Shown here: positions 27,353 through 51,855 of the stretch, in pieces
Layout: every line of letters starts with the position of its first letter
How positions within the stretch are numbered: the first letter of the stretch is position 1
Origin: a phage
Sequence record: PZ476263.1
Length of the DNA: 64,000 nucleotides
Reading direction: 5' to 3' (one strand)
Notes under the pieces: model-generated
Database searches by the model: none
What the model was told of the DNA's origin: nothing
Seen by the model: the letters and a program-made list of their open reading frames with translations, nothing else
Made by a program: the position numbers and the translations under genes

Positions 27353-27552
27353 TCCGTTATCTCCTCTTGTTCTGGATCTTCGATCATTGAGCTTTTAACT
27401 CTTGACCCGTATGTGGTCATTTCACCCGACCTACTCGAACCCTCAGGTGCTCTTATGACAGCATGACCTCTTAATAGTGTTCCTTCGTAGGTTTGTCCAA
27501 CTACAAAACCCATTTGGGAAACACCATTATCTCTATAACAAAGTAAATTCAT
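27349..27552 (-). CDS. small paralogue array member 11 (divergent)
   Basis: 67 aa; GQTYEG...IEDPEQEE; shares family scaffold. Confidence 0.55.
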   Translation of the reverse strand: MNLLCYRDNGVSQMGFVVGQTYEGTLLRGHAVIRAPEGSSRSGEMTTYGSRVKSSMIEDPEQEEITE

Positions 27553-27763
27553 CGTTCTCTATTTTAATTTCCTCTGTGATTTTATTTTCGGGATCAAGAA
27601 TAAGGCATGACTTTTTACACGGCACGGAATAAAACAACCCCCGCTCGTTTGGACAGATAATTAAAATATTTCGACCTCCCATATCTTTACCCTCGTAAGA
27701 CTCTCCTACCATTACCCCTTTGTCCCTCAGGAAACTATCCTCTTTTATGTAGATATACCTCAT
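27533..27763 (-). CDS. small paralogue array member 10
   Basis: 76 aa; MRYIYIKED...VGESYEG...ILDPE. Confidence 0.6.
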   Translation of the reverse strand: MRYIYIKEDSFLRDKGVMVGESYEGKDMGGRNILIICPNERGLFYSVPCKKSCLILDPENKITEEIKIENDEFTLL

Positions 27764-27960
27764 AGGCTGTTTTCCTCAGGGTCAAGAATAAAATGTTTAT
27801 CTTCGCAAAATCCCCAGTTATTTTCTCGTCCTAATGGATAGATACAGAGAATATTTTTCTTTATACTTGCATATTTCCCTTCATAAGTACAGCCTATTTC
27901 TACATGTTTCCAAGTAGGAACACTTAAGCATATGTATTTTTTAAATGTTTCTTCATTCAT
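27760..27960 (-). CDS. small paralogue array member 9
   Basis: About 66 aa from internal Met (track ORF to 27984); KKYICLS...IGCTYEG...LCIYPLG...ILDPEE. Confidence 0.6.
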   Translation of the reverse strand: MNEETFKKYICLSVPTWKHVEIGCTYEGKYASIKKNILCIYPLGRENNWGFCEDKHFILDPEENSL

Positions 27961-28156
27961 TTTGGTCCTCCCCCTCAGGGTCAATAACGAAGTGTATAGA
28001 ATTTAAATATCTTATCCCACCATCCAACCCTGTCGGGTAGATACAAAGATAGTGAAGCATTACGCTATCTTCACATCCATAATAAGTCGATCCTAAAGAA
28101 ACTTGACTGCTTGCTTTATCTGATAAGCAGATGTACTTTTTTAAATCCTGTTTCAT
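27953..28156 (-). CDS. small paralogue array member 8
   Basis: 67 aa; KKYICLSD...GSTYYG...LCIYPTG...VIDPEGE. Confidence 0.6.
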   Translation of the reverse strand: MKQDLKKYICLSDKASSQVSLGSTYYGCEDSVMLHYLCIYPTGLDGGIRYLNSIHFVIDPEGEDQNE

Positions 28157-28359
28157 TCATTAACCTCCTCAGGGTCGAGAATGAAATCATTAAAATCGCA
28201 AATTATCCAATCAGCAGACCAAGGGTGATGACCATCAGGGAAAATATATAGAACACCAGGTATCATTCCCCCTATAAAACCTGTATATGTCTCGCCTATT
28301 TTGACAAGATCCTCGTTACTTTTTATACAGAGGAACTTTTTAGTGTTTTTATCTCTCAT
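28153..28359 (-). CDS. small paralogue array member 7
   Basis: 68 aa; KKFLCIKS...IGETYTG...LYIFPDG...ILDPEE. Confidence 0.6.
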   Translation of the reverse strand: MRDKNTKKFLCIKSNEDLVKIGETYTGFIGGMIPGVLYIFPDGHHPWSADWIICDFNDFILDPEEVNE

Positions 28360-28565
28360 TTTTTAATATCCTCTGGTTCCTTTGCAAAACTCTTAGTGCC
28401 TATATATACCCATCCACTACCTATTCCATGAGGATATATACAAAGTGCATCCGACATTGTACTGTCGAATCCTGAATAAGTCTCCCCCAAATTAAGATTT
28501 GAGCATCCTTTGGTGCTTATGCATATGTAATTTTGAATATACATTTCAGGTTTTTGTTTCATTTT
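28356..28565 (-). CDS. small paralogue array member 6
   Basis: About 69 aa from internal Met (track ORF to 28622); NYICIS...LGETYSG...LCIYPHG. Confidence 0.55.
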   Translation of the reverse strand, partial: KMKQKPEMYIQNYICISTKGCSNLNLGETYSGFDSTMSDALCIYPHGIGSGWVYIGTKSFAKEPEDIKK

Positions 28566-28566
28566 A

Positions 28567-28764
28567 TTACTCCTCGTGCTCGGGGTCAAGAACGAAGTCC
28601 GCAGAATGATAGTACACACCATAAGTTTCTATCCCTTTCGGAAAAATATGAAGATAGTTGCTCATTAAAATATCTTTACGACCATAATAGGTCAATCCTT
28701 GAGAGATTGCTGTACCTGCCTCATCAGATATGCAAAGATACTTTTTAAATCCTATTTCACTCAT
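28567..28764 (-). CDS. small paralogue array member 5
   Basis: 65 aa; KKYLCISD...GLTYYG...LHIFPKG...VLDPEHEE. Confidence 0.6.
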   Translation of the reverse strand: MSEIGFKKYLCISDEAGTAISQGLTYYGRKDILMSNYLHIFPKGIETYGVYYHSADFVLDPEHEE

Positions 28765-28953
28765 TTAATCTCCTTCCGGATCAGCCGCTAAGCAAGATCC
28801 CTTACAAGGTGCTGACCTGAGCCAACCCTCATCGTTTAAATAGTAAATGATAATAACAGCATCTCCTATACCCTCAGTGCCTTCGTAAGATTCTCCTATT
28901 ATCAACGGGTAGTCTTCCAAAAGGCGATCTTCTTTTATGTAGATATATTTCAT
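28765..28953 (-). CDS. small paralogue array member 4
   Basis: 62 aa; MKYIYIKED...IGESYEG...AADPEGD. Confidence 0.6.
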   Translation of the reverse strand: MKYIYIKEDRLLEDYPLIIGESYEGTEGIGDAVIIIYYLNDEGWLRSAPCKGSCLAADPEGD

Positions 28954-29145
28954 TTATTCATCGCCTTCGGGATCTTCGACAAAATTATCTAACTTTACAG
29001 GCATAGATAAATTATCAGTCACCTTCACTGTGATGTAAATACTTTGAAAAGATTTAAATTTATTCTCTTCCCGATAAGTCTCGCCAACTACCAAGAGTTT
29101 AGAGTCCTTATTTTGTATGCATAGATAATTTGTCATTGTTTTCAC
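28954..29145 (-). CDS. small paralogue array member 3
   Basis: 63 aa; NYLCIQN...VGETYRE...VEDPEGDE. Confidence 0.6.
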   Translation of the reverse strand: MKTMTNYLCIQNKDSKLLVVGETYREENKFKSFQSIYITVKVTDNLSMPVKLDNFVEDPEGDE

Positions 29146-29345
29146 CTGTATTCAGGGTCTTCCGTGAAACTCTCCTTATTGAAAAATAGAGTAGTATCTT
29201 CATTTGGGAACGTTATAGGTATGTACTTACCCCGAGGAATACTATCGTTTATAAAGTAAGTCATACCTAATTGAAGTTTAGTGCTGTGTATGTTACTTAT
29301 ACATATAACCCCGACAAATCTTTCACCCTTCCTCTCCTTCTTCAT
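29142..29345 (-). CDS. small paralogue array member 2
   Basis: 67 aa; VGVICISN...LGMTYF...TEDPEYR. Confidence 0.55.
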   Translation of the reverse strand: MKKERKGERFVGVICISNIHSTKLQLGMTYFINDSIPRGKYIPITFPNEDTTLFFNKESFTEDPEYR

Positions 29346-29532
29346 ATATTTCAGGATCCTCTACAAAATCAGATTTCTTAAGCCATAGTTCCAAAGTATC
29401 ACTTACCCTTACGGATATCTGCCCACCAAATATTTTAGATGGTCTTACATAGTAAGTTTCTCCGATTACAAGTTTGTAAGTAGACCTATTGCTAACGCAG
29501 AGAAACTTAACATATTTTTGCTGTATACTCAT
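29323..29532 (-). CDS. small paralogue array member 1
   Basis: 69 aa; KFLCVSN...IGETYY...VEDPEIYEE. Confidence 0.55.
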   Translation of the reverse strand: MSIQQKYVKFLCVSNRSTYKLVIGETYYVRPSKIFGGQISVRVSDTLELWLKKSDFVEDPEIYEEGEEG

Positions 29533-29849
29533 GCAAGGCTTCGAACATACTCAAAGACTTTTTCATAATCTTCACCAAAGGAAACATAACCACTTCCCTT
29601 CGGATTGTCTAAACCATATGAATCGTCTTCAAATTTTTCCAGAATGATCCCGCCAGTGTATTCGATATACATCAAATCTCGTACTTTTGTCCACTTACCT
29701 ATACCAAAGGAAGCGAGATCTTTTTTGCAAATTTTAACATGCATATCTTTCTCTCCAGTATGATAGATATAAACATCCCCACTTTGGAGCTGTTCAACAA
29801 TGACCTCTGGAAAGATACCGCTTTGTGATTTACCGAATACCTTTTTCAT
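29529..29849 (-). CDS. hypothetical protein
   Basis: 106-aa ORF immediately upstream of the array. Confidence 0.5.
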   Translation of the reverse strand: MKKVFGKSQSGIFPEVIVEQLQSGDVYIYHTGEKDMHVKICKKDLASFGIGKWTKVRDLMYIEYTGGIILEKFEDDSYGLDNPKGSGYVSFGEDYEKVFEYVRSLA

Positions 29850-36049: not shown

Positions 36050-37402
36050 TTATTGAAAAATTGTCGGGAACTTTTCCTTATAGAAAGCCACAACATCTTG
36101 ATCAACGATAACATCCTTTACTCGCAAACGCTTAAGTAAGCGAAGACCGCTAGTATCTGTCGCACGAGAAAGCATAACGTAAGCCTGACCAGGTGAGAAT
36201 GTCCCATATCCTAGATCAATGTTAACTTTACCAAGTGTAAGACCCTGTGCTTTGTGTCCGGTGATCGCATATCCCAACTTAAATGGATACTGAATATATT
36301 CACCAATTGACTTATCAACCAAAACTGTTTTCTCTACCATCTTCTTAATGGTCTTCTTAGTCCCATCCGGCATATCAATCTCTACGTCTTCGAGAACATT
36401 TTTCTTTTCAGGGACTTGTGTAATATTGTTCCAAGTGAACGGTGCAATCGGGACCATTTTACCATCGATCTCTACAACAACGAAAGTTTTAGCGATACGT
36501 CGAATAATTCCAACAGTACCATTCACATAATCAGGGGTCTTTTTCTTCTGATCATTGTCATTAACGACAATCATAACCTTAAGACCTTCTTTGAGCATTA
36601 ATTTTTCATTAACAGGACGCTCAGTAAATTCACCTGTGATACGTGCATTGAATTCATGAGGTTCTGCCTTAATTTTAGAAAATTCTTTATTGTTAATCTC
36701 TTCCGCGAGCTTGTTTGTTGTTGTAAGAGTTACAGCACCCTCTAAAGAAGGCCCATAGCATTTACTGTTAAAGTAATTCACCGCATCAGGAATGTTTTTA
36801 CCGATACGAATATTATTGAGATGTTCAGCAAATTCTGGATCTGTTTGGCGATGAACCTTAGGCAAGTAAGCATAAGTCATATCCAAGGATTCCCAAGCCT
36901 CACAACCAAAAGGGATTTCTTTACCGTGAAGTTCACGGAATGTTGGAACTTCTTCTTTTTTAAGGACAGGCTTGATCTGGAAGCCATCACCAAACATGAT
37001 TACCTGCAAGCCACCGAAAGGCTCATTAACTTTACGATGATAACGCAGCTTCATATCGATCTCTTTAAGCTTGTCACTACGTGTCATGCCGATCTCATCG
37101 AATACGATTGCATCCAATGCTTCAGATGCCATAAGCATAGCGGGTTTCTTTGATTTAGCTTTATAATCTTCGCTTGTGGTTACTCCAAAGGTGAGTCCAA
37201 AAGCTTTATGAGTCGTCACACCACGGATATTCAATGAAGCTACGCCAGTTGGTGCGACAAAAAGAAAACTGTCAGCAAAGAATTCACGCAGAGAAGCGAT
37301 CATCATACTTTTACCACTACCACCAGGGCCTGTAACGAAAACATTCTTCCCTGCCATAATCTCTGCCATAGCCGCTTCTGTACCGATAACATAATTACTC
37401 AT
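36050..37402 (-). CDS. Dda/RecD-like superfamily 1 DNA helicase
   Basis: 450 aa; Walker A VTGPGGSGKS, Walker B FDEIGM, plus GDGFQ, TGHKAQGLT and YVMLSRA motifs typical of Dda/RecD/Pif1-type helicases. Confidence 0.85.
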   Translation of the reverse strand: MSNYVIGTEAAMAEIMAGKNVFVTGPGGSGKSMMIASLREFFADSFLFVAPTGVASLNIRGVTTHKAFGLTFGVTTSEDYKAKSKKPAMLMASEALDAIVFDEIGMTRSDKLKEIDMKLRYHRKVNEPFGGLQVIMFGDGFQIKPVLKKEEVPTFRELHGKEIPFGCEAWESLDMTYAYLPKVHRQTDPEFAEHLNNIRIGKNIPDAVNYFNSKCYGPSLEGAVTLTTTNKLAEEINNKEFSKIKAEPHEFNARITGEFTERPVNEKLMLKEGLKVMIVVNDNDQKKKTPDYVNGTVGIIRRIAKTFVVVEIDGKMVPIAPFTWNNITQVPEKKNVLEDVEIDMPDGTKKTIKKMVEKTVLVDKSIGEYIQYPFKLGYAITGHKAQGLTLGKVNIDLGYGTFSPGQAYVMLSRATDTSGLRLLKRLRVKDVIVDQDVVAFYKEKFPTIFQ

Positions 37403-37592
37403 TAATGTATTCTCCTACTTCTTCAGGATAAAGGACGTATGATTTACCATCTTTAAGGCTCTGTGCATAATAACAGAATACACTACCATCGGAAACAACT
37501 TCATCATACTCGATGTCTAAAACTTTAAAAATATCATTTGCTTTTGGATGATCGTCTCGGTCGCTGTAATCAGCCTTTAAAAAGATTTTCAC
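37395..37592 (-). CDS. hypothetical protein (start uncertain)
   Basis: GTG at 37592 overlaps the hydrolase stop (GTGA); track ORF from ATG 37667 would overlap the hydrolase 3' end. Confidence 0.4.
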   Translation of the reverse strand: MKIFLKADYSDRDDHPKANDIFKVLDIEYDEVVSDGSVFCYYAQSLKDGKSYVLYPEEVGEYINE

Positions 37593-38105
37593 TTTTTCTT
37601 CTCCTCTTTGTCTTTGTAAAAAACATGATTTTCTATTGTAACCGTACGCTTGAGAAGTTTTCTCCAAATTGGTTTAACCTTCTTCGTATGATAGTACAGA
37701 GATCCGTATGTCGGGTCAAGTCTTTTATAAAGTAATTCATTATCTTTTATTTTGTGAACAAACTTAGATATGTTTATCGCAACTTCCCATGAATCTTTAT
37801 CAGTGATTCGATAATCAGATTTAACAAGTGTCCATGAAAATTGTGAAGACTGGTAAAAACACCCCCTTCATGGTGGTAGGGAACTTATCATGTTTCATTC
37901 TGTTCATGGTCACAAAAGCAACAGCCATCTGACCATTAACTGTCTCACCTCTCGCCTCCATATAGACATTACAGGCAAGAGATTTTACAGAATTATCCTT
38001 CTTACTGCATTTATGGATAACCTTCTGTGCTCTCTCTTTGGCATAAGTAAAGCCTGGTGCCAGAGACAGAGTACAAACTAAAACACCTAAAACAATATTT
38101 CTCAT
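37589..38105 (-). CDS. SleB/CwlJ-type cell-wall hydrolase with signal peptide (putative endolysin), interrupted by +1 frameshift in G5 tract
   Basis: Signal peptide MRNIVLGVLVCTLSLAPGFTYA; Hydrolase_2-like NVYMEARGETVNGQMAVAFVTMNR; frame breaks at C5 (+ strand 37862-37866), and one G fewer would continue ...MKG-CFYQSSQFSWT, the expected motif. Confidence 0.6.
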
Positions 38106-38151
38106 CTTTCCTCCAATTGAGGACCCAGTTTATCACTGGGTCGCTCTCTTG

Positions 38152-38535
38152 TCAATTCCCTTTTTTACTTACAATCTGATCAGCGATCCCTTTCCACAGA
38201 TCATTTAAGAAAGGATTGCTGGTGATAACTTCACCCAACCAAGGACCATACAGACGATAAACATAATCATCTGTTATCGCATACAAAGAACCTTGACGTA
38301 CTGCAAGTCCACGAACAAGGGAAGTTGTTACTCGTCTACCATAATCCCCTGTTTCTTTTGCAACGGATTCTTTGTTTTCAATATAACCAACAAGATTTAC
38401 GAGTTTATCAATACCATCGATCTTGAATCCACACTTACTTTCAAGATCTTCTTGCAAAGTACTAAAACCTTCCAAGCATAAATTGCCACCGAATTTTAAA
38501 CCATACTTAGCTGCAAATTTATCTTGTGAATTCAT
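38152..38535 (-). CDS. hypothetical protein
   Basis: 127-aa ORF. Confidence 0.5.
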   Translation of the reverse strand: MNSQDKFAAKYGLKFGGNLCLEGFSTLQEDLESKCGFKIDGIDKLVNLVGYIENKESVAKETGDYGRRVTTSLVRGLAVRQGSLYAITDDYVYRLYGPWLGEVITSNPFLNDLWKGIADQIVSKKGN

Positions 38536-38738
38536 CAGTATTTCCCTGTTTGGATTTTTCGGGTCTGTTCAGCAATATTTTCAACAGTTTGCTTAACTTT
38601 AATAATCGCTCCATCCACTAAAGTAACTTCAACATGATTACCGTATAGTTCGTTATAACGCTCACGAAAATACAAGACAGATTCTGCACGAACACCGATT
38701 TTAGTATCATCACCACAAATTTCTAATTCTACAAACAT
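38535..38738 (-). CDS. hypothetical protein
   Basis: Likely starts at internal Met (MFVELEICG); track ORF to 38858 overlaps neighbour. Confidence 0.4.
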   Translation of the reverse strand: MFVELEICGDDTKIGVRAESVLYFRERYNELYGNHVEVTLVDGAIIKVKQTVENIAEQTRKIQTGKY

Positions 38739-40258: not shown

Positions 40259-40463
40259 TAATAATCTCCACCTTGTCTGTAATTGAACCCATGTAACACA
40301 AACCCTCAGGACCGCCAAACGGGACCAGTATCTTATTTTTGTACTCCATAGCATCATCCGATGCTTCAAAGATCATACTGTATACTGGCTTACCGAATAA
40401 GTCACAGTCTGTAATATAACGGAACTTATCTCCCTTTACAATATCTTTCGCAAGTTTATTCAT
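40251..40463 (-). CDS. hypothetical protein
   Basis: 70-aa ORF. Confidence 0.4.
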   Translation of the reverse strand: MNKLAKDIVKGDKFRYITDCDLFGKPVYSMIFEASDDAMEYKNKILVPFGGPEGLCYMGSITDKVEIIND

Positions 40464-51329: not shown

Positions 51330-51520
51330 GAGAACTTGAGGGCTTTTTCATTTTCCAGATCGTATTTTCGATTACTCGAACGAGAACTTGAGAGCTTTCT
51401 CACTAGAAAATTTGGAACTTGAGGGCTTTTTCATTTTTGAGATCGTATTCTGGATTGAGAACTTGAGCTACAGGCCAGATACTTGAGGGCTTTTTCATTT
51501 TCCAAATCGTATTTTGAATT
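51330..51520. repeat. iteron-like direct repeats (five copies of GAACTTGAG(G/A)GCTTT...)
   Basis: Units at about 51330, 51381, 51414, 51457 and 51481; three share the longer form ACTTGAGGGCTTTTTCATTTT(C/T)(C/G)A(G/A)ATCGTATT; inside an ~800-bp ORF-free region. Confidence 0.6.
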
Positions 51521-51855
51521 GAAAAATTTTTCATATGCATAAAATTATATGCATGTCAAGGTCTGGAGGGATAAAATTTTACAGAGTTGAGAATTATTCT
51601 CATTTGCAGAATAGCGGGCAGGGGTGGTGATTATTTCGTGAAACCGTCCTCATCACCATGAATGTATAATAGCACCGTTCAGCTCAAGATTGCAAGAGGT
51701 ATTTTAATTTATTTTTCAATAAATTTTAAACGAATTACCGGCGATCAACCTTACATCTGGTCGCCCAGTATGTTAGCCCCGCCTTTACGCCGTGGGGTGG
51801 CGCTTCCTCTTCTGTATGTAAAACAATATAAGCCCGATCCTTGGGCTTGTCAAGA

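Follow-up and report, generated by a model that had tools for sequence, protein, structure and literature searches.

A frameshift lesion in the SleB-like cell-wall hydrolase gene of a Vequintavirinae-type Escherichia coli phage

The phage DNA analysed here (sequence record PZ476263.1) is a stretch of 64,000 nt, referred to below as the window, with 39% G+C and no tRNA genes. On its minus strand, the gene for a SleB-like cell-wall hydrolase is divided between two reading frames. This arrangement raises the question of whether the gene has been lost through a real mutation, whether the consensus is wrong at one spot, or whether ribosomes change frame to complete the protein. An earlier sequence-only reading had called the gene a putative endolysin interrupted at a run of five G residues, had offered a sequencing indel, a real pseudogene and a slippage site as explanations, and had proposed a comparison with orthologues in related phages.

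Reading frames and protein family of the split locus

The locus comprises the following elements.

37821..38105, minus strand: frame-0 open reading frame (ORF) of 94 aa plus TAA, with the signal sequence, Hydrolase_2 profile positions 1-30 and an out-of-frame tail
37589..37864, minus strand: +1-frame continuation, with Hydrolase_2 profile positions 32-100 (YQSSQFSW ... YYHT ... W ... H-FY)
38037..38105, minus strand: predicted Sec signal sequence MRNIVLGVLVCTLSLAPGFTYA, followed by KE; R2 in the n-region, a 13-residue hydrophobic core and T-Y-A at -3 to -1, as read from the sequence
38110..38114, minus strand: ribosome-binding site GGAGG, 4 nt 5' of the ATG, read directly
38127..38155, minus strand: sigma-70-like promoter match TTGACA-17-TAAACT with TG before the -10 (10/12 matches), in the 46-nt gap upstream of the hydrolase gene
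37395..37592, minus strand: 65-aa ORF downstream of the hydrolase, whose GTG start (37592-37590) overlaps the hydrolase TGA (GTGA), with GAGGAG at 37606-37601

Frame 0 opens with ATG at 38105-38103 and closes with TAA at 37823-37821. Its 94-aa product reads MRNIVLGVLVCTLSLAPGFTYAKE...YMEARGETVNGQMAVAFVTMNRMKHDKFPTTMKGV, continues into the 12-aa out-of-frame tail FLPVFTIFMDTC and ends ...MKGVFLPVFTIFMDTC. From 37864, the +1 frame reads GCFYQSSQFSWT...HVFYKDKEEKKK and reaches TGA at 37591-37589. Matched separately to the Pfam family Hydrolase_2 (PF07486), the N-terminal half scores 30.7 bits over profile positions 1-30 and the C-terminal half 35.6 bits over positions 32-100. Each half alone exceeds the gathering score of the family (27 bits), so the split is not a chance pattern. 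Joined, the protein scores 78.1 bits and covers the whole profile (positions 1-100 of 100). These results agree with the sequence-only reading on the coordinates of the first ORF, which it had described as a signal peptide plus the first half of the SleB/CwlJ signature, and on an adjacent frame that supplies the second half up to a stop at 37589-37591. One continuous frame over the entire Hydrolase_2 domain is absent from the window, since frame 0 ends after 94 aa. Within the +1 frame, no ATG, GTG or TTG start opens an ORF of at least 30 aa, and no ribosome-binding site was found for it, so the C-terminal part could not be made separately.

A sequence search of the PDB returned the SleB catalytic domains 4F55 (E 4e-8) and 4FET (1e-7), matched over the catalytic part only. 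The PHROGs match is phrog_938, labelled 'endolysin', a name that several RefSeq records use too. Together with the score of the joined protein, these matches uphold the earlier assignment to the SleB-type cell-wall hydrolases. Residues E50, R52 and E54 (E50-x-R52-x-E54 of YMEARGE) do not vary among 12 homologues, and the motif aligns with YGESRGE in 4F55 and 4FET. Which glutamate of the Y-x-E-x-R-G-E motif is catalytic in SleB was reportedly addressed by Li in 2012 and Jing in 2012. The family has 23 invariant positions, 13 of which lie downstream of the break; all 13 are still encoded in the +1 frame.

The hydrolase thus shares its catalytic family with SleB and CwlJ of Bacillus (4F55, 4FET; PF07486), the Y-x-E-x-R-G-E motif and the downstream YQ..F both being alignable. 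SleB acts as a lytic transglycosylase and requires a catalytic glutamate (PMC12331253, PMC11148199). Unlike SleB proper, the phage protein lacks the N-terminal peptidoglycan-binding (three-helix) domain and carries a Sec signal sequence instead. Only this 23-aa signal sequence and about 25 further residues precede the Hydrolase_2 domain, Pfam reports no second domain, and the protein is single-domain like CwlJ. Because the host is Gram-negative, the substrate cannot be spore cortex with muramic-delta-lactam.

Alignment of the hydrolase homologues shows a conserved signal motif, CTLSLAPG..YA-KE. The cysteine within the signal sequence, Cys11 (38073-38075), is conserved in 10 of 12 homologues. 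Processing as a lipoprotein through Cys11 was considered; in this lineage the residue at -1 is V or I, which does not fit a lipobox. Certrevirus-type homologues have A before the signal-sequence Cys (IAAC, LVAC), which is lipobox-like, and some family members may be lipoproteins.

Upstream of the gene, the promoter-like site is a consensus match only: the region holds no more sites of this kind than shuffled sequence would be expected to give. The 8-bp repeat GACCCAG TGATAAA CTGGGTC, an inverted one, occupies 38142-38122 on the minus strand, and its loop holds the -10 of that site. The segment containing both (38122-38155) is identical in two related contigs introduced below (L004 and L008). 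The inverted repeat could be an operator or a 5' hairpin.

The gene in related phages and the position of the lesion

The window belongs to the genome of a Vequintavirinae-type E. coli myophage and has about 80% nucleotide identity to the Escherichia phages A73, A5-4, W70, A7_1, LTH01 and UPEC06, which form the proposed genus Septuagintavirus (PMC11370258). Closer relatives were found among assembled contigs: L004, a 141-kb ENA metagenome contig (about 91% nucleotide identity); L009 (94.5%); and L008, a Logan contig from SRR17836600 (99.26%). No record identical to the window turned up, and an exact look-up of its 450-aa helicase gave no match.

Two further observations concern the window outside the hydrolase locus. 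At 51330-51530 (plus strand), a unit of 21-48 nt, ACTTGAGGGCTTTTTCATTTT..GATCGTATT, is present in three to four direct copies, 52-83 nt apart. The segment holds only dubious small ORFs, and the homologous A73_40 CDS looks like translated repeats; the array could be iteron-like or regulatory. Around 27500-29550 (minus strand), tandem paralogous small ORFs of 59-69 aa share 30-55% identity with one another (tblastn, L004 gene set).

All six Septuagintavirus-type phages carry an uninterrupted 516-nt orthologue of 171 aa in the same syntenic place. There, a 127-aa ORF is followed by the hydrolase gene, then by a 65-70-aa ORF and a 450-aa PIF1-type helicase. An intact protein of 171 aa with 98% amino-acid identity (P0001) occurs on five contigs from several samples (L004-L007 carry it). 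L008 also has an intact 171-aa gene, identical to the window at all 571 aligned positions of gene and flanks except the lesion. L009 is in frame across the lesion site, its contig ending about 340 nt into the gene. More distant homologues have 165-222 aa. Among phage records, 1,173 contain a homologue, and the best 60 of these 1,173 are each a single in-frame piece. The proposed comparison with orthologues thus found the gene in one frame in every relative examined.

By sequence and position, the gene is an orthologue of a signal-peptide-bearing SleB-like (Hydrolase_2) peptidoglycan hydrolase conserved across Vequintavirinae-type myophages. Its counterparts include A73_73 and UPEC06 QUL77346 in Septuagintavirus-type phages, as well as CB7_83, phiTE SleB and CR3_087 in Certrevirus, all with the same length of 171 aa. 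The window protein is 84-86% identical in amino acids to its counterparts in the A73/W70 group and about 55% identical to those of Certrevirus. It shares with the Vequintavirinae orthologues both the signal motif and a position upstream of the PIF1-type helicase (PMC7344957; PMC11370258). It differs from them in the frameshift, which is seen in the window sequence only. The disruption is non-programmed, is unique to the window sequence and affects a well-known conserved gene.

Comparison with L008 places the lesion next to the G run and not within it.

37862..37866, minus strand: G5 run (AAG GGG G), ancestral and in frame, not the lesion
37855..37861, minus strand: lesion, T-G-T-T-T-T-T in the window and T-T-G-T-T-T in L008

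In L008, the codons are ATG AAG GGG GTT GTT TAC CAG (M K G V V Y Q); the window reads ATG AAG GGG GTG TTT TTA CCA G. Aligned base by base, the two differ by one additional base in the window at 37860 and by G->T at 37858 (TTG->TGTT). Equivalently, GTT stands in place of TG. The change creates a T5 run (37859-37855), separated from G5 only by TG, a feature that the sequence-only reading had not brought out. The intact L008-type sequence at the site is GGGGGTTGTTTAC (KGVVYQ), the window allele is GGGGGTGTTTTTAC, and ATGAAGGGGGTGTTTTTACCAGTCT is a 25-mer of the window allele.

The G5 run had been located correctly at 37862-37866, with the two frames meeting there, and the statement that one base fewer gives an intact protein also holds, as removal of one base at the junction restores 171 aa, the length of the orthologues. 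The run is not the site of the indel, however. L008 and L009 share G5 and stay in frame across it, so G5 is ancestral and the loss of one G from it does not describe the historical lesion. Dropping a G would moreover give KGCFYQ, a sequence at odds with the K/R-G/K-V/I-V-Y-Q that all relatives read at the junction. Because the lesion maps to 37860/37858, outside G5, the best repair is KGVFYQ. Even this repair carries V83F, and position 83 is V in all 11 aligned homologues.

A templated or quasi-palindromic origin of the lesion was sought, and no repeat of at least 10 nt matches the site. The 8-mer GGTGTTTT recurs near 38085 in our own reading, at chance level for the region.

Mutation, consensus error or recoding

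The window and L008 differ over 6,385 bp by 46 substitutions and one indel, the indel being the lesion. Across 38622..36938 (1,683 bp), the lesion is the sole difference, in a block where about 12 substitutions would be expected at average divergence by our own arithmetic. With no decay elsewhere in the gene, the lesion must have arisen very recently, unless it is not real. The flanks of this block differ from L008 by about 0.7-1%, and substitutions cluster at 40370-40431 and 36224-36755. An identity block at 36938-38622 with divergent flanks suggests recent recombination between closely related phages.

We lean towards reading the lesion as a genuine, recent, non-programmed loss-of-function mutation in the sequenced phage, and we infer that it is real, on balance, rather than a base-calling error. 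Two considerations direct this preference: the assembly is otherwise free of indel problems, and the change is complex and not a miscount of run length. A single complex lesion, a 1-nt insertion with an adjacent substitution just 3' of the ancestral G5, would have knocked out the hydrolase. Translation would end after 94 aa, retaining the signal sequence and YMEARGE and losing about 70% of the catalytic domain. An active enzyme would not be expected, since the 94-aa product lacks that part of the domain and the C-terminal part has no start codon. We propose that the phage would tolerate the lesion because lysis depends on the M15 endolysin described below; the toxicity of the homologue CB7_83 in E. 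coli has likewise been counted towards dispensability.

The chief competitor, a base-calling or assembly artefact, retains a substantial share of our confidence. It holds that the phage truly has the intact L008-type GGGGGTTGTTTAC and that the consensus is wrong at one spot. The near-perfect preservation of the locus accords with this idea: the gene and 1.68 kb around it match an intact relative apart from the lesion, and the 13 invariant residues downstream remain encoded in the +1 frame. The site is flanked by G5 on one side and by a T run on the other. All relatives examined have an intact gene, and homologues are present in all Vequintavirinae genera (PMC7344957). Such conservation implies that loss is usually selected against, which counts against a real mutation. 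No second assembly with the lesion allele was found by an exact look-up of the 94-aa ORF or by protein-pattern and frameshift-tolerant DNA-pattern scans of viral_contigs, and a 40-mer just downstream of the lesion had no match in metagenome_contigs or genome_contigs. This result also favours an error and speaks against a real mutation. That two changes should fall within 3 nt, in a block identical in all else, is unusual for mutation and error alike, and has been counted against the former.

An artefact is opposed by the form of the change and by the quality of the surrounding sequence. The lesion is not a simple homopolymer length error; it requires an insertion plus a substitution, or -1 and +2 in two T runs. 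Only one indel separates the window from L008 in 6.4 kb. Of the 46 genes in the L004 set, the hydrolase gene alone is split, the other 45 each mapping to the window in a single frame. A scan of A73 ORFs of at least 60 aa against the whole window raised seven split flags, among which A73_73 is the sole annotated gene. The other six flags fell on antisense or intergenic ORFs that carry no annotation, or on an ORF extending A73_66 upstream, and were set aside as not representing genes. Homopolymer runs of 5-6 nt number about 350 in the window (about 340 of them A/T) and none reaches 7 nt, yet no other compared gene is broken. Systematic homopolymer error in the window is ruled out by the L004 and A73 gene scans and by the single indel relative to L008. 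This good assembly quality lowers the odds of an artefact without removing them.

Recoding is improbable. Under this explanation, a leaky or programmed +1 ribosomal frameshift would yield the full-length 171-aa protein (KGVFYQ...) and lower the dose of a toxic secreted hydrolase. The frame-0 codons at the lesion are GUG(82), UUU(83) and UUA(84); tRNA-Phe on the P-site UUU of codon 83 would re-pair on the overlapping UUU, after which UAC (Tyr) would be read. The junction peptide of the shifted product is GVFYQSSQFSWTLVK. Re-pairing on UUU_U would be perfect, and a shift there would give back the length typical of the family together with every invariant residue downstream. Toxicity of the homologue CB7_83 on expression (PMC7344957) is also in favour. 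In-frame TTT TTA pairs are absent from the 10,057 codons of the window's long ORFs, which counts for little because only about 3 would be expected on a rough estimate.

The closest parallel is prfB (RF2), whose +1 site is AGG GGG UAU CUU UGA C (PMC13245932). As in prfB, where such an element stimulates the +1 shift, a Shine-Dalgarno (SD)-like element AAGGGGGUG (AGGGGG) lies immediately 5' of a P-site codon, here UUU, that is able to re-pair in +1. The A-site codon in frame 0, UUA, is a sense codon that accounts for 18% of Leu codons (13 per 1000 codons) in the window's long ORFs and is neither a stop nor rare. The spacer from AGGGGG to UUU is 2 nt, where prfB has a 3-nt codon (UAU/UCU). AGGGGG is also present in the intact genes of L008 and L009, so the element was in place before the shift and did not originate with it. 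With V83F, the product would depart from the V found in all 11 aligned homologues. Finally, the shift is absent from every relative compared, at 99%, 94%, 91% and 80% identity and down to below 50%; because it is conserved in no relative, the slippage site considered earlier is disfavoured. As for slippage during transcription, runs such as T5 and G5 are too short for it to be efficient.

A combination of the two ideas is, in our estimate, a shade less probable still. Here, the lesion would be real and partly bypassed, with the ancestral SD-like AAGGGGGUG and the new UUU_UUA supporting a low-level, prfB-like +1 shift. If so, the phage would receive a small, attenuated dose of the toxic Sec-exported hydrolase (with V83F), and the locus would represent a newborn recoding site at its origin.

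Long-standing decay as a pseudogene, or division of the gene into two functional polypeptides, is hardly credible. Two open frames do span the whole domain, but decay is contradicted by the single lesion, the gene and the surrounding 1,683 bp otherwise matching L008 throughout, and a split by a C-terminal frame lacking both a ribosome-binding site and a start for an ORF of at least 30 aa. Of the explanations first offered, the real pseudogene survives as a fresh mutation, not as a decayed gene, and is the one we incline to; the sequencing indel survives as a consensus error of appreciable probability.

Role of the hydrolase and meaning of its disruption

The normal 171-aa product would be Sec-exported to the periplasm, where it would cut peptidoglycan. 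It is predicted to act as a second or accessory muralytic enzyme beside an M15 endolysin. An M15 peptidase endolysin (127 aa, phrog_465) is 99-100% conserved in all six closest phages, about 56 kb from the SleB-like gene, and the paper on Septuagintavirus lists the SleB-like hydrolase alongside an M15C endopeptidase (PMC11370258). The presence of this separate conserved peptidase in relatives indicates that the SleB-like hydrolase is a second muralytic enzyme and not the sole endolysin. The M15 endolysin is absent within the 64-kb window, and the phage probably carries it outside the window.

The earlier name 'putative endolysin' can be kept only in part. PHROGs and RefSeq use that label, yet database names for phage SleB-like proteins ('amidase', 'endolysin') are unverified. 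A principal endolysin is not indicated by the context: a separate M15 endolysin exists in the six closest phages, and the downstream ORF is predicted to be soluble. The gene is placed among early and replication genes, its neighbours being small early ORFs and the PIF1 helicase.

Pectobacterium phage CB7 encodes the homologue CB7_83, which carries a signal peptide and whose expression in E. coli is toxic; homologues of CB7_83 occur in all genera of the subfamily, and for one, CR3_087, a part in lysis is no more than implicated (PMC7344957). An ORF that overlaps the SleB-like gene of CB7 encodes a 65-aa protein with two transmembrane domains and has been proposed to be a holin (PMC7344957). The overlapping 65-aa ORF of the window is intact and 92% identical to the 65-aa gene of L004, but in contrast to the CB7 protein it is acidic and soluble, without a hydrophobic segment. 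The pairing of SleB and holin thus fails in this lineage.

For annotation, the two fragments belong together under a single entry for a disrupted SleB-like hydrolase, marked as a pseudogene or as a frameshift pending verification, not as a short novel protein and not as the principal endolysin. If the lesion is an error, one base is to be corrected. If it is real, the phage amounts to a natural knockout for a gene that every genus of the Vequintavirinae has conserved, and its comparison with the 99%-identical intact relative would test the role of the hydrolase, be it as a second lysin or in early periplasmic wall remodelling.
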